From contig JBDGYW010000001.1 in NCBI GenBank assembly GCA_039588935.1, forward strand, positions 13,659 to 77,658: DNA of 64,000 nucleotides, given 5' to 3'. Under the pieces are notes generated by a model. That model made no database searches. It saw only the letters and a program-made list of their open reading frames with translations, and was not told the origin of the DNA. This DNA is from Gemmatimonadota bacterium. Lineage in GTDB: Bacteria; Gemmatimonadota; Gemmatimonadetes; Gemmatimonadales; GWC2-71-9. Made by a program: the position numbers and the translations under genes. Below are positions 1 to 62,945 of the stretch, piece by piece; position 1 is the first letter of the stretch; every line of letters begins with the position of its first letter.

Positions 1-527
1 GCAAACCAGTCCAGATGCTCACGGAAGGGGGCAACCGTCCATTCGATCTGGCGACCGCTTTTGCCGCGGTAATTGAGAAGTCCCGTCCGCACACCCTCGC
101 GCACCGCCCGCTTCGTGAGCCGACAGACGTCGCCAACCCGGAAGCCACGCATGCAGATCATCATGAGCGCTGCTGCTTCTGCTTCCTTGAAGGGAAGTTC
201 GTCGACGGCTGCGATCACGCCGTCCCACTCATCGAGGGTCAGCGGGCGCTTCTCGTGTATCCGCTCCGGTGGCGGGAGCTTCAGGTCATCGAGCGTCTCG
301 AGCAGCGAGGTGTCTTTCGTGTACTTGGCCCAGGCCCGGAGTGCCGCAAGATTCGTGCGCTTGGTCTTTGGCGCGAGCCCGTCGCGGACGAGGCGGCCGG
401 TGAGGCCGCGCCGGTCGGCGAGGCAGTGCGCGACATTGTGTGCGTAGAGTTCCGCCGTCCCCTCCGTTCGGCCGCGGCCGATGAGCCAATCTGAAAACCG
501 CTGGATCTGCGCTTGTTTGGAGGGCAT
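1..527 (-). CDS. int: Tyrosine recombinase / phage integrase, N-terminal ~175 aa (3' end runs off the window)
   Basis: Absent from the ORF track because it has no stop in the window. ATG at 527-525. My translation is MPSKQAQIQRFSDWLIGRGRTEGTAELYAHNVAHCL...LTLDEWDGVIAAV...ALMMICMRGFRVGDVCRL, which gives a SAM-like N-domain followed by the first catalytic Arg box of phage integrases. Confidence 0.8.
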   Translation of the reverse strand, partial: MPSKQAQIQRFSDWLIGRGRTEGTAELYAHNVAHCLADRRGLTGRLVRDGLAPKTKRTNLAALRAWAKYTKDTSLLETLDDLKLPPPERIHEKRPLTLDEWDGVIAAVDELPFKEAEAAALMMICMRGFRVGDVCRLTKRAVREGVRTGLLNYRGKSGRQIEWTVAPFREHLDWF

Positions 528-544
528 CTGAGGATAAATATTGC

Positions 545-557
545 TTTAGATTCGCAA
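545..557. promoter_or_regulatory. 13-bp dyad copy TTTAGATTCGCAA
   Basis: Intergenic. Lies 17 nt upstream of the integrase ATG (opposite strand) and 6 nt upstream of the -35 of the candidate sRNA promoter. Confidence 0.7.
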
Positions 558-562
558 ACTGG

Positions 563-591
563 TTGACGAAAGGCAAGCCGAACCCTAGGAT
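563..591 (+). promoter_or_regulatory. Candidate sigma70-type promoter TTGACG-N17-TAGGAT
   Basis: -35 at 563-568, 17-nt spacer, -10 at 586-591. Divergent from int. A terminator lies about 60 nt downstream of the predicted transcription start. Confidence 0.35.
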
Positions 592-597
592 GTAGCT

Positions 598-684
598 GCA
601 GAACCCTTCGGGAACTCGGATCGTCCTCCTTGCTCCCACCCCGCTTGCGCCCCTGCTTCTTCGCCGTCGTAGGGGCGTTTTTTT
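598..684 (+). ncRNA. Candidate ~85-nt sRNA carrying an anti-RBS box UCGUCCUCCU
   Basis: Bounded by the promoter-like element (563-591) and the intrinsic terminator (648-684). No ORF. 621-630 TCGTCCTCCT is the exact complement of the AGGAGGACGA cassette found upstream of at least 14 genes here. Confidence 0.3.
648..684 (+). terminator. Rho-independent terminator (orphan, no upstream CDS)
   Basis: Stem CGCCCCT (648-654) pairs with AGGGGCG (671-677), 16-nt loop, followed by T7 (678-684). Confidence 0.55.
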
Positions 685-893
685 GCCTTGAAGTCGGCGG
701 CGCTCTTGGGTAGCCTCAATCTGCCGGGCCGATTGGGCGAGGGTTATCATCTTGACCATGAACGCCGAAAGGCATTTCCCTCCCCGCCACTTGCCCGGCA
801 TTGACAACCAGCTCTCCATTTGCCGAACAAAGGCAAAGGGCCCACCGCGAGCCTGAACGTTACAACGCGCGCAGTAGATCGCGAATCGCGGTA

Positions 894-934
894 GGGGACG
901 CCGGCACGTACAAGCAATCACGCACGGCGTCCCC
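894..934 (+). other. Strong hairpin in the int-tRNA spacer
   Basis: GGGGACGCCG (894-903) pairs with CGGCGTCCCC (925-934), a perfect 10-bp stem with a 21-nt loop. No T-run follows. Confidence 0.5.
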
Positions 935-941
935 GCCTTGA

Positions 942-1016
942 TGCGGTGAGGGACGATCCCCAGCTTGGGCTCATAACCCAATGCCCCTTCAGGTTTGACT
1001 CCTGGCGCCGCTACCA
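942..1016 (+). tRNA. tRNA-like element, anticodon CAU, encoded CCA, no canonical D-arm (pseudo- or non-canonical tRNA)
   Basis: Anticodon arm is TTGGG-CTCATAA-CCCAA, with the three G:C pairs next to the loop typical of initiator tRNA. T-arm is TCAGG-TTTGACT-CCTGG. Acceptor TGCGGTG/CGCCGCT pairs at 6 of 7 positions, then A-CCA. The D region is only 14 nt with no 4-bp stem, and the variable region is 7 nt. Confidence 0.35.
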
Positions 1017-1052
1017 AGACCGCGGCCTCTCGGTGGGGGCCTACACGCACCA

Positions 1053-1126
1053 TTCGACTTAGCTCAGCCTGGTAGAGCTCCGAACTAACACTTCGGTGGT
1101 CGAGAGTTCAATTCTCTCAGTCAAAA
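1053..1126 (+). tRNA. tRNA, anticodon AAC (Val by the code)
   Basis: Hand-folded cloverleaf. Acceptor TTCGACT/AGTCAAA pairs at 6 of 7 positions (C3:A70 mismatch). D-arm GCTC-AGCCTGGTA-GAGC. Anticodon arm CCGAA-CTAACAC-TTCGG with U33 and A37. T-arm GAGAG-TTCAATT-CTCTC. 74 nt, CCA not encoded. Confidence 0.75.
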
Positions 1127-1155
1127 CCGCCCCCACCACTCGGCCGCGGTTTTTC
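1125..1155 (+). terminator. Weak terminator-like hairpin after the tRNA
   Basis: AACCGC (1125-1130) pairs with GCGGTT (1146-1151), followed by TTTT. Short stem that overlaps the tRNA 3' end. Confidence 0.3.
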
Positions 1156-1168
1156 TGTTAGGCTCCCC

Positions 1169-1390
1169 GTGATGCGACTGATCGACGCCAACACGGGTTA
1201 CGAGCCTAAAGCAGGCGAGACCTTCAAAAACGTCCTCGGCTACGTGACGATCCTGAAGGTGCGCGAGGGCATCTTCTCGGCCAAGGTGCTGGTCTCGATC
1301 AATGGCGATGACCCGCAGTGGTGGCCGCTCACCGTGCGCTACCTACACCCCGGCTTCCCGTTTCAGAAGGTCGGCTTCCTCAACAGCTAA
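1169..1390 (+). CDS. Hypothetical protein (73 aa)
   Basis: ORF track. GTG 1169 or ATG 1172 start. First ORF after the tRNA and convergent with 1387..2091(-). No domain recognised. Confidence 0.5.
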   Translation: MMRLIDANTGYEPKAGETFKNVLGYVTILKVREGIFSAKVLVSINGDDPQWWPLTVRYLHPGFPFQKVGFLNS

Positions 1391-2091
1391 AGCTCGACGA
1401 CCGCGGCGGAGCCGATGATCCGGTAGGGCCGCCCGCGTGCCTGGCAGAACCTCTTGAAGACATGGTGGGGCAAAGCGTTCTGATTCCACTCGTCCGGCCA
1501 ATCCCAGTCATCGCAGATGATGAGGCCGTGCTCGACCAGGTGGTTGGCGGCGAACTCGAGCTCCCACCTCATATTCGCCGCGCCGTGGTCGGAATCGTGA
1601 ATGAAGAGATCCCACGGCCCAGTTAGAGCCGCAAGTTCTGGGAGCACCTTCTTGCTCTCGCCGGCCAGGAAGGTGAATCGGTCAAAGCCATTGAAGCCCA
1701 GGGTGTCGCGGATGGCATCCATGGCCTGCTTCTGGCTGTAGTGCCTCGGGTCGCAGCTATACAGTGCGCCGTGTCCATTCCGATCGAGCGCGCGAAGGAC
1801 CAGGGACGCGCCCACACCGAAGCGCGTCCCTGTCTCGATGACCTTCTCGGGCCGGAGGATGCGGCAGATCGCATAGACGTAGTCCTGGTAGAGCAACGGC
1901 CCGTGGCTGTGCAGTCGCTTGTGGTCCGGGATCGCCTTGGCCTCGGCGAGAATCGGGCCCGGGTCGACATTGTGGCGGACGGCTAGGTCGCGAACGTAAT
2001 CCCAGTCACGCATCCGGCGAGAATAGCGCACCTTCGAGCGGTGAGGCCTGATGCAGATCGCGAGTCGGTTCGCAAGGAAAATCAGTTGCAT
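1387..2091 (-). CDS. Class I SAM-dependent methyltransferase (CmcI / O-MTase-like)
   Basis: ORF track 1387..2181 trimmed to ATG 2091 (ATG 2013 also possible) so the DnaA-box spacer stays non-coding. Motif I VIETGTRFGVGAS, then LFIHDSDHGAANMRWELE, as in Methyltransf_24/CmcI-type enzymes. Confidence 0.7.
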   Translation of the reverse strand: MQLIFLANRLAICIRPHRSKVRYSRRMRDWDYVRDLAVRHNVDPGPILAEAKAIPDHKRLHSHGPLLYQDYVYAICRILRPEKVIETGTRFGVGASLVLRALDRNGHGALYSCDPRHYSQKQAMDAIRDTLGFNGFDRFTFLAGESKKVLPELAALTGPWDLFIHDSDHGAANMRWELEFAANHLVEHGLIICDDWDWPDEWNQNALPHHVFKRFCQARGRPYRIIGSAAVVEL

Positions 2092-2126
2092 CTCCCACCA
2101 CCTGGTCGTGGAATTTTTCACCAAAG

Positions 2127-2146
2127 TTATCCACAGGTTATCCACA
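2127..2146 (+). promoter_or_regulatory. Two tandem perfect DnaA boxes TTATCCACA
   Basis: 2127-2135 and 2138-2146, 11 bp start to start. Flanked by GGAATTTTT repeats at 2110 and 2164, in the divergent MTase/XRE spacer. Confidence 0.6.
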
Positions 2147-2234
2147 CGGAATTTCGCGCACTTGGAATTTTTTCCCTCCACGTCGGCAGATAACTTGACC
2201 GGCCGTCACGAACCGTGTGAGATTACTATCCGTC

Positions 2235-2489
2235 ATGGAGGACGAGCCGTTGACCCAAGAGGAAGCTGCCCGCCTGCTCCGCGCTGAGCGGAAGCGAGCG
2301 AACCTCACACAGGACGAGATGGCGAAGGCCCTCGGCATCGGCCAGAGCCACTACAGCCTGCTGGAGCGCGGCAAGAGGCGCTACACCGTCGTCTACCTGA
2401 TGAGGGCGAAACGGAGACTTGGCGTCAGCTACGAATCTCTGCTGGGAGAGACCGAGGGGGACGAACAGAAATGCCACGCAGACGGGTAG
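2235..2489 (+). CDS. XRE / Cro-CI family helix-turn-helix regulator
   Basis: ORF track 2217..2489 with the start moved to ATG 2235 (MEDEPL). LTQDEMAKALGIGQSHYSLLERGKR is a canonical HTH_3 motif. Confidence 0.8.
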   Translation: MEDEPLTQEEAARLLRAERKRANLTQDEMAKALGIGQSHYSLLERGKRRYTVVYLMRAKRRLGVSYESLLGETEGDEQKCHADG

Positions 2490-3643
2490 CGGTCCGGCCG
2501 GACAAGCTGTCGCACACGAAGATCACGCCGCGGCTGATGGAGTGGGGCCCCTGGGAGATGATGTCTCCGACCGCGCGCTGTCTATGGATAGGGCTCTACG
2601 CTAGCCCAGAGGCGCGCAGCGTCGCTCCAGGCCTCTGGAGGGGCGGTGTCGCAGTGATGGCCGAGTCCTCGTGCCTGGGAGTCACGGACACACAGAACGC
2701 ACTGAGCGAGCTGAAGGAGCGAGGCGTCCTTCTCTTCGATCCGGCGACCCGCGTCGCCATCTTCACGAGGCTTCCGGACCGTGCAATGCGCCCCGCAAAC
2801 GGCCGCTGCATCGTCCGCTACTACAAGCGATGGGCGGAGCTGCCGGATTGCCTGTTGGTGGATGCCTGGATTCATCTGCTGCTCTGGCTCTGTCACCCCA
2901 TGACGGGGGACCATGAGAAGCACTGGGACAGCACTTTTGGGGACGCGACAGGTGTAATGTCCAGCACAATCCCGATTTTCCCAATTGAAGGCGTCATTAC
3001 GAACTCCGAAAAACCTGTTGTTCTGGCCAGCACAAATGGTCATGACGAAGCCTCCCGTGGAGAACCTGAGGACAAGGTAGCACAAACATCAATGTTTCAG
3101 CAAGGATCCGATACGGTATCCGAGACTGTTGAGGATACCCTACTTATTACTTATAGCTTGTCCGGAGTAAGAGAAGGGGGTGTGGGGGAAGAGAGGACCC
3201 GGGGGCCAGCCAACGGGGCGGACTTCCTGGAGGGGCGCAGGCGGAAACCGCGGCGAAAGCCAGAGCGCCCCTTCGCCATCAAGGACCTCTTCGCGGCGCT
3301 GCGCGAGACCTCGGCCGGGCGGGTCGCAACGACGCCATGGGACGTGAGGATGGCGAAGCCCCTATGGGACGTCATCGAGGCTTGTGGCCAAGCTGAAGTA
3401 ACACTTGAGGACGTGCGGCTGGCCGGCGACTGGCTCGCGGCCGGCGGTCTCGGCTATCGCGATGACCTCGGCATCCCCTGGATCGCGAAGACTGGCGAGC
3501 TCCTCAACGCCGTCGCGAAGGCGCGGCTCTGGGGTGAGGCCGGCCGCGGAAAAGTTGAGAGTCACAAGAAGGGTTCTGGGCGAGGGGTGACGGCCCGCGA
3601 TCTTGCGGACCGAGCCGCCTCACTCGAGGCTGACGGACAGTAG
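2471..3643 (+). CDS. Hypothetical 390-aa protein; possible replication initiator/organiser (inference only)
   Basis: ORF track. GAGGGGGA RBS. Overlaps the XRE gene end. Winged-helix-like segment NALSELKERGVLLFDPATRVAIF. Sits next to the DnaA boxes. Confidence 0.65.
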   Translation: MPRRRVAVRPDKLSHTKITPRLMEWGPWEMMSPTARCLWIGLYASPEARSVAPGLWRGGVAVMAESSCLGVTDTQNALSELKERGVLLFDPATRVAIFTRLPDRAMRPANGRCIVRYYKRWAELPDCLLVDAWIHLLLWLCHPMTGDHEKHWDSTFGDATGVMSSTIPIFPIEGVITNSEKPVVLASTNGHDEASRGEPEDKVAQTSMFQQGSDTVSETVEDTLLITYSLSGVREGGVGEERTRGPANGADFLEGRRRKPRRKPERPFAIKDLFAALRETSAGRVATTPWDVRMAKPLWDVIEACGQAEVTLEDVRLAGDWLAAGGLGYRDDLGIPWIAKTGELLNAVAKARLWGEAGRGKVESHKKGSGRGVTARDLADRAASLEADGQ

Positions 3644-3657
3644 GAGGACGACGGGGC

Positions 3658-3825
3658 ATGATCTGGCACGATGGACCACGGTGTCCGCACTGCGGGCGAA
3701 GGTTTTGGACGGAGGCCGCGCTGTGGAAGCATTACGAGCGCGGATGTCGGAAGACACCAAAACAGAAGTGGGAGAAGCCGAAGGGCCCGCTGTCGCTCTA
3801 CCCTAACAATCGGCGATGTAGTTAG
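3658..3825 (+). CDS. Small zinc-finger protein (55 aa)
   Basis: Below the ORF-track size cutoff. TAGGAGGACGA cassette followed by ATG 3658. My translation is MIWHDGPRCPHCGRRFWTEAALWKHYERGCRK.... It fills the 3644-3834 gap. Confidence 0.55.
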   Translation: MIWHDGPRCPHCGRRFWTEAALWKHYERGCRKTPKQKWEKPKGPLSLYPNNRRCS

Positions 3826-3834
3826 GAGGACGAC

Positions 3835-5355: not shown

Positions 5356-5368
5356 CGGAGGACGACAA

Positions 5369-5608
5369 ATGTCACAGCCAATGGATGAGCAAGAGGTGAG
5401 GCGCCGTCGTCAGCACGCCACCGCGGGCGCTCATATAGCTCAAGCTGTTGAGCATCTTGCGCGTGCCCAGGAAGCAGTGGCGGATCTTTGGGCCGGGGGC
5501 CATGCGATTAGCAGCTACTACCTCGACCAGCTCAGCCGCGCGGCGAACGCGCACCTACAGATTGCGGCTCACGGAGACGAGTTAGGAGGACGAGATGGCC
5601 AAGATTGA
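5369..5608 (+). CDS. Hypothetical protein (79 aa)
   Basis: ORF track 5264..5608 trimmed to ATG 5369 behind GGAGGACGA (5357-5365). Confidence 0.65.
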   Translation: MSQPMDEQEVRRRRQHATAGAHIAQAVEHLARAQEAVADLWAGGHAISSYYLDQLSRAANAHLQIAAHGDELGGRDGQD

Positions 5609-5896: not shown

Positions 5897-5907
5897 CGGA
5901 GGACGAT

Positions 5908-6336: not shown

Positions 6337-6349
6337 GTAGGAGGACGAG

Positions 6350-8742: not shown

Positions 8743-8918
8743 CGGCACGCAAGACATTCCGCGGCGAGAAGCGGGCGACGAAGGCCGAACTTAAGAAGGA
8801 AGCACGGGAGATCGCGAAGTTCGTCGAGATGTTGTTGCAATTCTCGCACGAAGGCCGCTTCCGTATTCTCCGCGCGCTGTCGGCCTACTTTCGCAACTAC
8901 AACGGAGACGTGAAATAG
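8739..8918 (+). CDS. Hypothetical basic protein (59 aa)
   Basis: ORF track 8697..8918 trimmed to ATG 8739 (ATGA overlap with the previous stop). Confidence 0.55.
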   Translation: MTARKTFRGEKRATKAELKKEAREIAKFVEMLLQFSHEGRFRILRALSAYFRNYNGDVK

Positions 8919-8927
8919 GAGGACGAC

Positions 8928-9946: not shown

Positions 9947-10411
9947 GTGAAGGAGATCATGAAAAAATCAACGCCACTGACGGTCTACGACTGGGTGGCC
10001 TGTGTCGCTCGAATCGTGCCTGAGGCAACCTTTTCAGCCGGGACTCGCATCAGGGACAATAAGCACCGCGTTGTCGTCGAAACTCCATGGATGAACCTGG
10101 AGTGCGTAGTAGAGGAGGATAAGGCGGAGGCTGTTCGCGATCACTTATACACGAAGCGCCCATGTATCGCATGTGAAGGAAAGGGATATGTGGGAACCGC
10201 ACGGGCTCGATGTGCGCACTGCAATGGGGCAGATCTTGAGAGTCGCAATCGCGAGAGCGAGTGCGGCGATGAGCCGGAGTTCGCGATTTGCAGTCAATGC
10301 GGGCTCGCCATCGTGCTTGCAGCCAAGGAGAGCGGGCGACTGGTCAAACACGAGGACCCGTGTTCGCGAAAGCCCTGCCTGGGCATGGCCTCAACGGGTT
10401 CGCCGAAGTAG
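9947..10411 (+). CDS. Cys-rich protein (154 aa) with DnaJ-type CxxCxGxG-like fingers
   Basis: ORF track. GTG 9947 (ATG 9959 is an alternative). CIACEGKGYV, CAHCNG, CSQCG. Confidence 0.65.
   Translation: MKEIMKKSTPLTVYDWVACVARIVPEATFSAGTRIRDNKHRVVVETPWMNLECVVEEDKAEAVRDHLYTKRPCIACEGKGYVGTARARCAHCNGADLESRNRESECGDEPEFAICSQCGLAIVLAAKESGRLVKHEDPCSRKPCLGMASTGSPK
10236..10248. repeat. 13-bp dyad copy TTGAGAGTCGCAA
   Basis: Inside CDS 9947..10411, read as cTT GAG AGT CGC AAt (LESRN). Confidence 0.7.
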
Positions 10412-10423
10412 GAGGACGACGGC

Positions 10424-11260: not shown

Positions 11261-11273
11261 TTGAGACTCTAAA
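11261..11273. promoter_or_regulatory. 13-bp dyad copy TTGAGACTCTAAA
   Basis: Intergenic. Fused to the GGAGGACGA RBS (11274-11282) of 11284. Confidence 0.65.
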
Positions 11274-11283
11274 GGAGGACGAG

Positions 11284-16293: not shown

Positions 16294-16309
16294 AACGGAG
16301 GACGAGAGA

Positions 16310-18104: not shown

Positions 18105-18767
18105 ATGGGGAGCACCAGCATGGCCAAGCGGACTGCCTCGAGCAAGCTATCCCGCAAAGTTGCGAGTCGCAAGAGCCGGAAGAAGCGGAACCTCAAGAAG
18201 CGCTCCAACCCGTCGGCGGTAGCCAAAGAGGCTGACGGCATTATCTCTCACACCTGGGCGGAGCTCGCCACCATGGCGCTTCCCGGACTCGGTGGTTATG
18301 CTGGCGGTCGTGCAGCCGGGTGGCTTACCTACCGCGTTCTGAAAAAGCGATCGCCGAGACTCGCCAAACACGCCGGACCACTCGGATCTGTGGCCTTCGC
18401 GATCGGCGCCTCCTACGCAACCCGTCGATTCGAGTCGCTGCAGAAGTACGACCTGCCGATCATCGTCGGCGCCTGGATCGCCGCGCTCCAAAGTGGTCTC
18501 CAGACCTACGCTCCAGCCATGTCCTGGGTTCTCGGCGACTGGAACATGACCGAGTTCCTCGCGCCGGCCAAGGCCGCAGCGAGAGCGAACGCCGCACAAG
18601 TCGAGCAGCTCGAGGGCTACGACCAGGCCTACGCGGAAGCCTTCGAGAGCGCGCCCGCGGCAGAGCCGCTGCCGGCAACCAGCGGCGAGGACACCTTCGA
18701 CGACATCCCTGGTCTCAATGACGAGGGGGTGAGGACGGGGATCTTTGCCGGCGGGCTGTCGAACTAG
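18105..18767 (+). CDS. Basic-hydrophobic-acidic protein (220 aa), short paralog of 48682..50211
   Basis: ORF track (ATG 18120 behind GGGAG is an alternative start). K/R-rich N-terminus, hydrophobic core, and a C-terminal TGIFAGG shared with the 509-aa basic protein. Confidence 0.7.
   Translation: MGSTSMAKRTASSKLSRKVASRKSRKKRNLKKRSNPSAVAKEADGIISHTWAELATMALPGLGGYAGGRAAGWLTYRVLKKRSPRLAKHAGPLGSVAFAIGASYATRRFESLQKYDLPIIVGAWIAALQSGLQTYAPAMSWVLGDWNMTEFLAPAKAAARANAAQVEQLEGYDQAYAEAFESAPAAEPLPATSGEDTFDDIPGLNDEGVRTGIFAGGLSN
18160..18172. repeat. 13-bp dyad, perfect palindrome TTGCGAGTCGCAA
   Basis: Inside the 5' part of CDS 18105..18767, read as gTT GCG AGT CGC AAg (VASRK). Confidence 0.75.
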
Positions 18768-20076: not shown

Positions 20077-20089
20077 TCGAGACTCGCAA
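20077..20089. promoter_or_regulatory. 13-bp dyad copy TCGAGACTCGCAA
   Basis: Starts 1 nt after stop TAG 20074-20076 and ends exactly at GTG 20090. No SD in between. Confidence 0.7.
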
Positions 20090-22109: not shown

Positions 22110-22122
22110 TTTAGAGCCACAA
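22110..22122. promoter_or_regulatory. 13-bp dyad copy TTTAGAGCCACAA
   Basis: Intergenic. Embedded in the palindrome GGCTCTTTAGAGCC, 2 nt upstream of the GGAGGA RBS of 22136. Confidence 0.65.
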
Positions 22123-34288: not shown

Positions 34289-34911
34289 CAGTCTTCTCCT
34301 CGCTCCAACTCGTCCAGGTACGCATCGTCCAGGCCCTCGCCGCCGATGCTGGATTCCGACAGGAAGCTCCGCTCCTCGCCGTCCTGGAGCGAGTCGAGCT
34401 GGGAGTTATCGGGGGCATCGAGCCGCGGCCTGGGCGGTTCGCGCATCTCGCCCTGGATCTGCGGGGCCTGCGGCGCTTGCAGTGCGAGCTGGTGACCCTT
34501 CTTCTTGAGACCCTTGATCTCCTCCAGGGTCGGCAGGTCGGCCGGGTCGGGCAGCGCCAGGAGCATCTCGTCCTCCGCGCGCAGGCCCAGGCGCTGGTCT
34601 CGGGCATCGGCCGCGGCCGAGAGTTTCAGCCGCATGTCCGCGAAGTCCGGTATGTCCAGATCTTCGGCGGCCGGATGGTCGACCACGCGAGCGCCGAGGC
34701 ATTCTGGGCAGGAGGTCCCGAGTGAGCCCGCGTAGATCGAGCCGGCGCCGCCGCACTCGGGGCAGGGCATCTTCATGGTTTTCAGGTAGGCCAGACGCTC
34801 CCAGATGGTCTGCGCCTCATGCAGGGCGCGTAGCCGATCATCGACGTCGTCGAGTTCGGAAAAATCGTCCTCGTCAGGGTCCTCCCCTGGGGTTCGGTAC
34901 GGATGGTCCAT
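34288..34911 (-). CDS. Acidic protein with a DnaJ-type zinc finger (207 aa)
   Basis: ORF track 34288..35115 trimmed to ATG 34911 behind GGAGGACGA (34913-34921). CPECGGAGS...CPECLGARV. Confidence 0.7.
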   Translation of the reverse strand: MDHPYRTPGEDPDEDDFSELDDVDDRLRALHEAQTIWERLAYLKTMKMPCPECGGAGSIYAGSLGTSCPECLGARVVDHPAAEDLDIPDFADMRLKLSAAADARDQRLGLRAEDEMLLALPDPADLPTLEEIKGLKKKGHQLALQAPQAPQIQGEMREPPRPRLDAPDNSQLDSLQDGEERSFLSESSIGGEGLDDAYLDELERGED

Positions 34912-35293
34912 GTCGTCCTCCTCTCGGCCGCGGCCGGTCAGGAATGTGAGGCGGGCGAGCCCGCCAGGGAACTGTACGCGCGACAGCATCGAGCGCACGT
35001 TGAATGTCGGTAGCTCGCTTATGGCAGACATCGATGTCCTCGGCCAGGACGGCGAGCTTGCCCTGGGACGCGGTGACGGCCACGCTGTTCTCTTCGACCG
35101 TCGTCTGCATGTCAATGTCGAGTAAGTCCTTTAGAGTCGCAACTTCAGCCTCGAGCCGCCTGGCCTTAGCCTTCAGCTCTCGGATCTCACCAGTGTTGTA
35201 GCCGATCGCATAGCCGAGAAAGACCACGCCAAGCACGTACCAGATCCAGAGCGGTCGAAGATCGCGAGGCGGCCGGCCGGCCCATTCATCCAT
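34874..35293 (-). CDS. Membrane-anchored coiled-coil protein (139 aa)
   Basis: ORF track 34874..35326 trimmed to ATG 35293, which overlaps the upstream stop. TM segment LWIWYVLGVVFLGYAIGY followed by ELKAKARRLEAEVATLKDLL. Confidence 0.6.
   Translation of the reverse strand: MDEWAGRPPRDLRPLWIWYVLGVVFLGYAIGYNTGEIRELKAKARRLEAEVATLKDLLDIDMQTTVEENSVAVTASQGKLAVLAEDIDVCHKRATDIQRALDAVARTVPWRARPPHIPDRPRPRGGRHGPSVPNPRGGP
35130..35142. repeat. 13-bp dyad copy TTTAGAGTCGCAA
   Basis: Inside CDS 34874..35293 (coding strand GTT GCG ACT CTA AAG). Confidence 0.7.
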
Positions 35294-36322: not shown

Positions 36323-36575
36323 CGTCGTCCTCCCCGATCGAGAAGTCCTCGGCATCCATCTCCTTCATGGCGTTCTGCGCCTTGGAGATCGCGATCGCCG
36401 CAGTGTGGCAGAAAAGGAATGACGTATCAATCTCATCGGCGCGCACCGCCCCATCTGCGTCCTCCTCGGGATCGCAGAAGTATGACTGCACTAGCTCGAT
36501 CGAGGCCCGCGCATCCCGCAGGTTCACGTCGGCCGCCACCAGCCGCGCCATGGCTTCATCCCGTTTGGTCGTCAT
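36282..36575 (-). CDS. Hypothetical acidic protein (97 aa)
   Basis: ORF track. TGATG overlap with the upstream gene. Confidence 0.6.
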   Translation of the reverse strand: MTTKRDEAMARLVAADVNLRDARASIELVQSYFCDPEEDADGAVRADEIDTSFLFCHTAAIAISKAQNAMKEMDAEDFSIGEDDDEEDVDETPTEEE

Positions 36576-47893: not shown

Positions 47894-47906
47894 TTGCGAC
47901 TCTCAA
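47894..47906. promoter_or_regulatory. 13-bp dyad copy (minus-strand reading TTGAGAGTCGCAA)
   Basis: Ends exactly at GTG start 47893. No SD. Confidence 0.7.
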
Positions 47907-56497: not shown

Positions 56498-57011
56498 TCT
56501 CGTCGTCCTCCTCCTCGTCGTCGTCCAGGTCGAGGTCGTCGTCCAGGTCGGGCAAGTCCGTTGGACGTACGGGTCGGTGTTTCGGGTGCTGGGCGAAGTA
56601 CTTCTTGCGCCGCTTCTCCAGCTTGCGCAGCTCGCGCTTGGTGAACGGATCCCAGCGGTCACAGTCCAGGACTGGCGAATCTCCTGATAGCTCCAGGTAG
56701 ACGCCTGGCTGGATGATGCAGCAGCGGTGATGTTCTTGTGGCCGGTAGTCCTCGAGCCCGAGGGCCTCGAAGGTACCGCCCGCATTGCCGTGATCGAAGT
56801 GCGACATGACGTGTAGGTAGTAGCGGCAGTTTCGCTCGCAGGGGCAGTTCTGTGGGGTGTGGGGTGGCCCTGGCTCCGGCGGACTGATGAGGTTCACGGC
56901 CTCCGGCGTTGGGCCTCCGTCCGGCGCGGGCGGTCCCCAGGTCGCTGGCTCCCCCTCTTCGAGTGCTCCGGCAGGTCGAGCTACCCCATCAGGATCATCG
57001 TGTCCCTTCAT
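56442..57011 (-). CDS. First gene of the leftward array: Cys/His-rich N-half, basic then poly-acidic C-half (189 aa)
   Basis: ORF track 56442..57032 trimmed to ATG 57011 behind GGAAGGAGATCC. Overlaps the next gene by 56 nt. Confidence 0.6.
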   Translation of the reverse strand: MKGHDDPDGVARPAGALEEGEPATWGPPAPDGGPTPEAVNLISPPEPGPPHTPQNCPCERNCRYYLHVMSHFDHGNAGGTFEALGLEDYRPQEHHRCCIIQPGVYLELSGDSPVLDCDRWDPFTKRELRKLEKRRKKYFAQHPKHRPVRPTDLPDLDDDLDLDDDEEEDDENESRDDSDGDRCVDQQAE

Positions 57012-59567: not shown

Positions 59568-60044
59568 ATGGCAGAAAATAGAGGCTGGAAGGTGATCGGC
59601 CGTGGGAAGAACGGCTGGCACGCGGACAACGGGACCACATCGCTATCCGGCGCCTACGCGGAGGGACGTGGCATCGAGCTGGCCGCGGAGGCCGCCGAGG
59701 GCGCGCTGGTCTACGACGCGAAGGACGCCGACGAGGGCCAGTTCATCAGACTGGTCATGGCCGGACCGATGTGCTGCTGCAAGCTCGATCCCGACAGCTA
59801 CGACAAGCTCGACGGCAAGACGCGCAAGGCAGCCTTGCGCATGGCCCCGCTCATGGAGGGGTCGTTCAAACAGTACGCGCTCATGGCACAGAACCCCAGG
59901 TTCGGTGGGCTCGACCAGGTCGGCGTGCATATCTACGAGGGTCTGCTTCGCCAGGTCGACGGCATGCGTATCGGTCACGTCAAGAACGGCGAGATCGTCT
60001 GGGAAGAGCCAGGGCCGGAAGCGCAGTTGGAGCTTCTGTCATGA
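59568..60044 (+). CDS. Hypothetical protein (158 aa)
   Basis: ORF track 59547..60044 trimmed to ATG 59568 behind AAGGAGGACAAA. Confidence 0.7.
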   Translation: MAENRGWKVIGRGKNGWHADNGTTSLSGAYAEGRGIELAAEAAEGALVYDAKDADEGQFIRLVMAGPMCCCKLDPDSYDKLDGKTRKAALRMAPLMEGSFKQYALMAQNPRFGGLDQVGVHIYEGLLRQVDGMRIGHVKNGEIVWEEPGPEAQLELLS

Positions 60045-62115: not shown

Positions 62116-62128
62116 TTGCGAGTCGCAA
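62116..62128. promoter_or_regulatory. 13-bp dyad, perfect palindrome TTGCGAGTCGCAA
   Basis: Intergenic, 4 nt upstream of the GGAGGACGA RBS (62133-62141) of 62143. Confidence 0.75.
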
Positions 62129-62142
62129 TCAAGGAGGACGAG

Positions 62143-62761: not shown

Positions 62762-62945
62762 TCTGAAGAAGTTGACCCAGGAGGAGTTCGACGCGCTGCT
62801 TGAGGAGATCGTGAGCGAAGAGGGCCACAACCTCCTGTCTGTCCCCGGCGTCTACGAGATTGTGGCGGAGCACTTCAACAACGAGGTGCTCCGAAAATGG
62901 GAGGACAGCCAGGAGGACGAGGAGGACGAGGATGGCGATTCCTGA
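62754..62945 (+). CDS. Hypothetical acidic protein (63 aa)
   Basis: Tail of track ORF 62490..62945. ATG 62754 behind TAGGAGTAGCG. Confidence 0.6.
   Translation: MPDLKKLTQEEFDALLEEIVSEEGHNLLSVPGVYEIVAEHFNNEVLRKWEDSQEDEEDEDGDS

Follow-up and report, generated by a model that had tools for sequence, protein, structure and literature searches.

Does the spacer between the integrase gene and a tRNA gene of an uncultivated phage encode a small RNA (sRNA) that can pair with the ribosome-binding sites (RBSs) of many genes of the same phage? This question is raised by positions 563-684 of a 64,000-nt stretch of contig JBDGYW010000001.1 (the whole stretch is called the window below). The window starts inside a tyrosine-recombinase gene (int, minus strand, ATG at 527), tRNA-Val(AAC) lies at 1053-1128 on the plus strand, and the sRNA candidate sits between them. 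The original prediction had placed a promoter, a segment complementary to a repeated RBS motif of the phage (the cassette) and an intrinsic terminator in this spacer, and had pictured their product as a global brake on translation. Our results give very good support to a conserved non-coding element with the anti-cassette segment at its core, and its interpretation as a plus-strand small RNA is well supported. That 598-684 (+) encodes a trans-acting phage sRNA, which would repress the cassette-bearing genes by pairing, is the reading we favour, and we rate its chance as about even.

A conserved unit between int and the tRNA gene

The letters of the promoter, the anti-cassette and the terminator were all found at the places where they had been described (Table 1). 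When positions 1-3000 were scanned on both strands for sigma-70-like sites, TTGACG/17/TAGGAT was the only one found (0.3 expected). The core stem of the terminator is formed by CGCCCCT (648-654) and AGGGGCG (671-677), and RNAfold widens the stem to 647-678. This hairpin is missing from the output of the automated terminator scan, whose 8-nt limit on the loop it exceeds. The predicted transcript folded at -28.8 kcal/mol (z = -2.2). Its core had been described as single-stranded, which agrees with the fold for UCGUCC (621-626, predicted unpaired with P of at least 0.98) and disagrees for UCC (627-629), which is predicted to pair with GGA (618-620). T630 lengthens the match of the seed to the cassette to 10 nt in the window phage.

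A protein that matches the integrase of the window at 100% identity is encoded on an 80.6-kb contig, and L001 represents the same phage. Phage genes flank int on both sides in L001. The spacer had been described as free of open reading frames (ORFs). Mechanical ORFs do overlap it, yet no gene was called there in the identical contig L001.

For the comparison, contigs encoding integrase homologues were fetched together with their flanks. The unit was found in 10 further lineages (L002, L003, L006, L007, L019, L020, L021, L023, L065 and L066), on the strand opposite to int, and the integrases of these lineages are 47-64% identical to that of the window. The -35 box is TTGAC followed by C or G in 10/11 lineages (L021 has TTGCCA), and the TA of the -10 box was found at 16-19 nt spacing in 11/11 (TAC in 7). 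After the -10 box come 20-50 nt of unrelated sequence, the invariant TCGTCCTCC, another 10-20 nt of unrelated sequence and a GC-rich hairpin. This hairpin is of the terminator type in all 11 lineages, with a different stem sequence in each. In the MAFFT alignment of the 11 homologues, the invariant columns were TTG-C of the -35 box, nine consecutive seed positions, the GGG of the terminator stem and three isolated positions. The mean column identity was 48%, and the flanks were otherwise unalignable.

The unit was absent from the available flanks of about 50 loci with more distant integrases (identity of at most 45%, plus L013 with 51% and L022 with 47%). Scans of the GTDB genomes and IMG/VR with the single integrase protein gave no matches, and profile scans gave only distant integrases (37-51%), all without the unit. 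When IMG/VR was scanned for TAGGAGGACGANATG in order to detect cassette-rich contigs, the matches listed were single, apparently random hits, and no multi-hit contigs were among them.

The structure was judged for each sequence separately and no covariance model was used, as MAFFT cannot put the sequence-divergent hairpins in register. In the local minimum-energy folds, UCGUCC was located in an apical loop of 6-8 nt in 11/11 homologues, closed by the conserved GGA/UCC. The mean unpaired probability was 0.83-0.96 for seed positions 1-6 and 0.13-0.38 for positions 7-9. The lower stem is formed by the non-conserved flanks, which were more complementary to each other than shuffled sequences (Stouffer Z = -3.8, uncorrected for relatedness). 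As seed positions 1-6 lie in the loop, the loop would display a reader of GGACGA, including the phage-specific spacer bases. The predicted transcripts of the homologues are 79-110 nt long.

The strand of the element was also evaluated. The terminator hairpins were on average 2.5 kcal/mol more stable as plus-strand RNA (Wilcoxon p = 0.03), with 16 G-U pairs on this strand versus 3 on the opposite one, and T-runs followed the hairpin only on the plus strand. None of the homologues showed a promoter-like site on the int strand. The int strand reads GGAGGACGA at the seed, and no start codon was found within 14 nt of it in 4/5 homologues examined; the motif was accordingly rejected as the RBS of a small int-strand ORF. 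Taken together, the hairpin stability, the G-U bias, the plus-strand T-runs and the missing int-strand promoter and start codon indicate that a plus-strand RNA is the best-supported functional form.

The cassette and the genes that carry it

The 10-mer AGGAGGACGA occurs in 13 copies in the window versus 0.25 expected. One copy is the reverse one at 621-630 and 12 are in sense to the downstream gene, fewer than the 14 or more genes once credited with the exact 10-mer. Of the 9-mer GGAGGACGA, 18 sense copies were counted in the window. An ATG or GTG follows 17 of them at a distance of 1-6 nt, and the remaining copy stands ahead of the TTG start codon of a helix-turn-helix (HTH) gene. At least three further 9-mer cassettes were found in the phage outside the window, including that of the ParB gene. 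In very many cases the motif shares bases with the stop codon of the gene before it, as in TAG-GAGGACGA-n-ATG.

About 49 genes have GGAGG within 12 nt of the start. ACGA comes next in 15 of these RBSs, and any other 4-mer at most 2 times, which bears out the claim that the complementarity extends beyond the generic Shine-Dalgarno (SD) core. The conserved tail of 16S rRNA is unable to pair with ACGA. Given the excess of ACGA after GGAGG and its inability to pair with this tail, the cassette represents a class of initiation regions of its own.

The cassettes concentrate in the rightward early block (2.2-11.3 kb) and in a block at 62-63 kb. The term global was too wide for this distribution, as about 20 genes have the motif, mostly early or non-structural ones, and most structural genes use RBSs that differ from the cassette. 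Ten cassette-bearing proteins were annotated with PHROGs. Only the HTH regulator and the HNH endonuclease were recognised, and no functional theme was found among the ten beyond early/non-structural. Within an ORF starting at 34911, one cassette precedes an in-frame ATG at 34566, a possible internal start giving a shorter isoform.

The cassette was also found in the relatives. L002 retains it at its orthologues of the HTH and ParB genes, and it is present at RecT in L006 and at int in L003. There were 19 cassettes in the 64-kb window and 19 in the 69.8 kb of unit-bearing loci, versus 2 in the 198 kb of loci with distant integrases.

Table 1. Features of the candidate unit and of the cassettes in the window.
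Feature	Position	Strand	Details
13-bp near-palindrome copy TTTAGATTCGCAA	545-557		strand not assigned; between int start codon and sRNA -35
-35 hexamer TTGACG	563-568	+	promoter scan; TTGAC in 10/11 homologues
-10 hexamer TAGGAT, 17-nt spacer	586-591	+	promoter scan; TA in 11/11 homologues
Predicted transcript, ~87 nt	598-684	+	5' end inferred from -10; 3' end in T-run
Seed hairpin	610-637	+	lower stem GGGA 610-613/UCCC 634-637; upper stem GGA 618-620/UCC 627-629; apical loop UCGUCC 621-626
Anti-cassette 10-mer TCGTCCTCCT	621-630	+	direct sequence read
Seed TCGTCCTCC, 9 nt	621-629	+	complement of GGAGGACGA (SD + spacer); invariant in alignment
Intrinsic-terminator-type hairpin + T7	647-684	+	stem 647-656/669-678 (RNAfold); T7 678-684
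Cassette GGAGGACGA	2237-2245	+	before TTG 2250 of 79-aa HTH regulator, first gene of rightward early block
Cassette	3643-3651	+	6 nt before ATG 3658
Cassette	3825-3833	+	1 nt before ATG 3835
Cassette	5357-5365	+	3 nt before ATG 5369
Cassette	5585-5593	+	1 nt before ATG 5595
Cassette	5898-5906	+	1 nt before GTG 5908
Cassette	6340-6348	+	1 nt before GTG 6350
Cassette	8918-8926	+	1 nt before GTG 8928
Cassette	10411-10419	+	4 nt before ATG 10424
Cassette	11274-11282	+	1 nt before ATG 11284; 13-bp dyad copy 11261-11273 directly upstream
Cassette	16297-16305	+	4 nt before ATG 16310 (HNH endonuclease-like, 146 aa)
Cassette	34568-34576	-	1 nt before in-frame internal ATG 34566 of ORF starting at 34911
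Cassette	34913-34921	-	1 nt before ATG 34911
Cassette	36325-36333	-	2 nt before ATG 36322
Cassette	56503-56511	-	5 nt before ATG 56497
Cassette	62133-62141	+	1 nt before ATG 62143; upstream CAA gives 12-nt match to sRNA; 13-bp dyad 62116-62128, 4 nt upstream
Two tandem cassettes	62912-62929	+	before ATG 62932

Proposed mechanism, alternatives and the rest of the spacer

In the mechanism that we propose, an sRNA of about 80-110 nt would be transcribed back-to-back with int from a host-type promoter (TTGAC, about 17 nt, TA...) and would end at the intrinsic-terminator-type hairpin. Its sole invariant part, UCGUCCUCC, would be held in a hairpin, with UCGUCC as the apical loop and UCC paired with the conserved GGA. 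The loop would start pairing with GGACGA, and the duplex would then grow to the full GGAGGACGA. The predicted target consists of the SD core and four spacer bases, 1-6 nt before the starts of about 20 phage genes, a mainly early/non-structural set that would include the first HTH regulator and ParB. The computed energy of the seed/cassette duplex was -15.9 kcal/mol for 9 bp and -17.5 kcal/mol for the 10 bp of the window phage, and that of the generic 16S tail on the cassette initiation region was about -10 kcal/mol. A 9-10 bp duplex (about -16 to -17.5 kcal/mol) would out-compete the 5-6 bp contact of the 16S tail (about -10 kcal/mol). The duplex would span the SD and spacer as far as 1-6 nt from the start codon and so should exclude the 30S subunit, in the canonical manner of anti-SD sRNAs. 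Binding of 30S would be blocked, and the whole gene set would be repressed together. From the earlier interpretation, the conserved plus-strand non-coding unit with an anti-cassette core was retained (11 lineages, seed in the loop, strand bias, co-occurrence of unit and cassette in the clade), and its global reach was given up.

The position of the unit next to int brings in another explanation, namely that the RNA is mainly a cis-antisense regulator of int, acting on its processing, stability or translation, and that the cassette match is secondary. The action of lambda OOP on cII is a model for such an arrangement, in which the plus-strand RNA would be fully complementary to the leader of the int operon. 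The unit lies directly upstream of int in 9/11 lineages. In the five lineages inspected, no more than 14-46 nt separate its -35 box from the start codon of int, so any int transcript must begin within or beyond the unit. L003 has a gap of 126 nt between int and the end of an upstream gene on the same strand, and the unit fits entirely inside it; int itself uses the cassette as its RBS there (AGGAGGACGAacgATG). However, an antisense RNA is complementary to its target whatever the sequence, so this explanation does not account for an invariant 9-mer that equals the complement of the cassette amid unalignable flanks. In L019 and L066, moreover, the unit is 0.5-1.2 kb away from int with small genes between them. 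We consider it rather unlikely as the main function. It is compatible with trans-repression of the cassette genes and does not exclude it: as int-bound transcripts must cross the sRNA gene in antisense, the sRNA probably acts in cis as an antisense RNA to the int-operon leader as well.

If the int strand were the functional one, GGAGGACGA in the int-operon leader would be a further start-associated copy, serving as a standby or decoy site for a phage RNA-binding protein or the ribosome. The copy is indeed oriented like int, just as the other copies match the orientation of their own genes, and the start-associated sequences (SAS) of the Cluster K mycobacteriophages are unexplained too, with a protein factor suggested for them (PMC3203893; PMC11373665). 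This leaves unexplained the conserved plus-strand -35/-10 spacing, the T-runs and the bias in hairpin stability and G-U pairs, and neither a promoter-like site on the int strand nor, in 4/5 homologues examined, a start codon after the motif was found; we regard it as improbable. The motif might also act as DNA, with GGAGGACGA being an asymmetric site for a phage DNA-binding protein and 621-629 being one more such site. The 13-bp stoperators of Cluster A phages are asymmetric, numerous, intergenic and oriented with transcription (PMC3203893), and a separate 13-bp near-palindrome stands beside many starts in the window, which makes dense control at the DNA level plausible. But the motif holds the full SD core at 1-6 nt from the starts, a spacing set by the ribosome and not by promoters, and both the loop presentation and the strand-biased hairpins at the reverse copy point to RNA, so that we find a DNA-level role very improbable. 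Equally little credence is given to the idea that the unit serves as the 5' leader or the attenuator of an operon of non-coding RNAs in the remainder of the spacer, namely a structured RNA, the tRNA-like gene and the tRNA. The hairpin would then tune read-through, and the CCUCC-rich segment would have no role in trans. All of the downstream spacer (685-1130) is conserved and non-coding, with a tRNA-like gene and a tRNA at its end, both encoded on this strand. The first hairpin of L002 and L007 has no U-tail, and a second hairpin with T7 lies about 130 nt further, directly before the tRNA-like gene. On the other side, L003 has the unit and ARAGORN found no tRNA or tRNA-like gene there, the strong T7 terminators of the window, L003, L006 and L065 favour a separate short RNA, and the exact, invariant complementarity to the cassette would remain without explanation.

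Several observations weigh against trans-repression by the sRNA. One sRNA would need to titrate about 20 mRNAs. A duplex prediction with a 28-nt C/U-rich window against all initiation regions was discarded as too permissive, only the seed-level comparison being meaningful: the energies overlapped (cassette -25.7 versus non-cassette -18.4, sd 5.2), and the specificity thus rests on the 9-10 nt seed alone. The seeds are identical in 11/11 lineages, hence seed/target co-variation cannot be drawn on as evidence. The -10 box is weak in 7/11 homologues and the strict sigma-70 definition applies to 3/11. The U-rich tail is strong in 6/11 and weak in five (L002, L007, L019, L020 and L066), and in L002 and L007 the RNA may be part of, or cut from, a longer precursor. 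L007 has the unit, yet no cassette in its 6.8 kb available, and L013 and L022 showed no unit in the approximately 3-kb flanks fetched. Finally, the phage family, of about 80 kb, is represented by metagenomic contigs only: no cultured relative was found, and no close relatives by DNA or protein were detected in cultured-phage and plasmid collections. The cluster metadata gave no useful clue to the host. The phage has ParB, recombination genes of the RecT/ERF type and a small recombinase resembling XerD; its lysogeny is uncertain.

Around the unit, further elements were observed. The 13-bp dyad at 545-557 proved to be a genuine member of a repeat family, TTGMGA-N-TCGCAA, with 55 hits across the window (at most 3 mismatches) versus 6.9 expected. 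Example copies are 545-557, 11261-11273, 18160-18172, 20077-20089, 22110-22122, 47894-47906 and 62116-62128. Among the copies examined, several stand no more than about 15 nt away from the start of a gene and share its orientation; both cassette-bearing and structural genes are represented. The copy at 545-557 could be an operator shared by int and the sRNA. The int ATG at 527 has no Shine-Dalgarno sequence upstream (..TATTTATCCTCAG-ATG; region 528-545, minus strand), and TATTTA, 7 nt upstream of this ATG, could be the -10 box of a leaderless mRNA. In the terminator loop (657-668 in the window), the motif GCGCCA(A) recurs in L020, L023, L065 and L066, and also in L003 and L019, despite differing stems; it may be a second conserved single-stranded element.

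Downstream, 685-940 (+) is conserved and non-coding and was aligned with L006 (2852-2590), L002 and L007. It contains an apparently co-varying long-range helix, CCGCGA...TCGCGG in the window versus CCGAGA...TCTCGG in L002 and L007, and may be a further structured RNA or the leader of a tRNA precursor. A conserved GGTAGGGG hairpin stands just before an uncalled tRNA-like gene, which occupies 943-1016 (+) in the window and, on minus strands, 9709-9637 in L002, 2655-2584 in L007 and about 2584-2515 in L006. This gene has a cloverleaf with an acceptor stem of 6-7 bp, a miniature D-arm (GGG..CCC), the anticodon loop CUCAUAA (CAU), a T-arm and a 3' ACCA, and its acceptor and T stems show compensatory changes between lineages. 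ARAGORN calls it tRNA-Met in L002 and L007 and misses the versions of the window and L006. The tRNA-Val at 1053-1128 has a C-A mismatch in the acceptor stem, and its anticodon AAC is unusual in bacteria. At the equivalent position, L006 has a tRNA-Met(CAT) with arms nearly identical to those of the tRNA-Val of the window.

Comparison with known regulatory systems

Known RNA families were searched with Rfam 15. Over the whole window only the tRNA passed the gathering threshold, and in the region 500-1200 at E <= 10 nothing credible was found over 563-684. At six homologous loci (E <= 1), only tRNAs and one sub-threshold match to Atu_C7 (RF02501, a Rhizobiales sRNA) were obtained. This match, in L019 at 778-629 (-), scored 23.5 bits versus a gathering score of 45 and spans the promoter region too. 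The alignment puts the seed in the CCUCC loop of the model (UUUCCUCCCUC) and aligns the terminators, which hints at an alpha-proteobacterial host or a convergent architecture. Neither the window nor the remaining five of the six loci gave such a match. As for the generic features of trans-acting sRNAs, the seed is present and no gene is called over it in L001; the -35 box and the TA of the -10 box were seen in 11/11 but the -10 box as a whole is weak in 7/11, and the hairpin was seen in 11/11 with a strong U-tail in 6/11.

The alpha-r14/NfeR1 sRNAs display an ultraconserved, C/U-rich anti-SD 9-mer, CCUCCUCCC, in loops on variable stems and silence many mRNAs by occluding their RBSs (PMC10746234). 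The element described here resembles them, and the AbcR1/2 group, in its manner of working, as it also carries an invariant anti-SD motif in a loop (11/11) while the stems vary. In contrast to alpha-r14/NfeR1, its motif is UCGUCCUCC and extends into the spacer instead of along the SD, and it has one seed hairpin instead of three, so that the features defining that family were not found. It also differs from the alpha-proteobacterial anti-SD sRNAs in being encoded by a phage beside int and in having the phage's own genes as predicted targets.

A small phage RNA whose loop would pair at an RBS is also reminiscent of the phage immunity RNAs, namely P1/P7 c4, P22 sar and the P4 CI RNA. The loop sequences of c4 pair around the RBS of ant and block its translation (PMC12197685). 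Unlike here, where about 20 dispersed targets share a motif, c4 lies upstream of its one target (icd-ant) and is transcribed with it in the same operon. The downstream gene here is a tRNA-like RNA and not an antirepressor, there is a single complementary segment instead of two, and no Rfam hit was obtained.

The closest positional parallel is found in the SAS of the Cluster K phages, which combine an SD core with conserved bases that do not pair with rRNA (PMC3203893). They are present in 11-19 copies, 3-7 bp before the starts of non-structural genes and often over the preceding stop codon, all in one orientation except for a single reverse copy away from gene starts, and a second repeat (ESAS) stands just upstream of some copies (PMC3203893). 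Their function has been unexplained since 2011 and was still so in the literature of 2024-2025 (PMC12699233; PMC11373665). Similarly, the cassette has about 20 copies, which precede the starts of mostly non-structural genes by 1-6 nt. There is one reverse copy, and a 13-bp dyad lies just upstream of some copies; this 13-bp family in turn recalls the mycobacteriophage ESAS or stoperator repeats. The sequences are different (GGAGGACGA versus the consensus GGGATAGGAGCCC, more than 2 mismatches), as are the phage lineages and probably the host phyla. In Mycobacterium phage Anaya (L069, JF704106), the reverse SAS GGCCTCCTATCCC (+) is at 34871-34883 (record about 59,870-59,882), in a 385-nt non-coding gap between gp96 and gp97 and with TTGACC 10 nt upstream. 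No convincing promoter-terminator unit or terminator was seen around it, so this parallel is no more than a lead. The likeness between cassette and SAS as a whole does provide a specific hypothesis, and existing RNA-seq data of mycobacteriophages would serve to check it. More broadly, and only tentatively, we suggest that some phages might mark a gene set with a private extension of the SD and control this set by one small RNA, whose loop would mimic the 3' tail of 16S rRNA (GGAUCACCUCCUU; GGAUCGUCCUCCUU in the sRNA) and read the private extension too. Such a system would be an RNA-based, phage-specific translation channel, and the element would offer a first concrete candidate for the kind of factor that may act in trans on start-associated sequences.

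T4 RegA is a phage protein that represses many early mRNAs at their initiation regions through a loose A/U-rich site. The proposed sRNA would likewise be one phage factor for many early mRNAs, with the difference that it would be an RNA relying on exact pairing of 9-10 nt. To our knowledge, RegA is the only familiar multi-gene translational repressor in phages, and the phage regulatory RNAs known to us (c4, sar, OOP and P4 CI) act on one or two neighbouring targets. If our proposal is true, one phage transcript of about 90 nt holds about 20 phage genes under common translational control through a tag built into their RBSs, and such an orthogonal tag/anti-tag pair could serve as a compact tool for multiplex translational control. 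In conclusion, the element stands outside every described family. Its kinship in kind is with the anti-SD trans-acting sRNAs and the phage immunity RNAs, and among them its many-target, self-directed logic is unusual.

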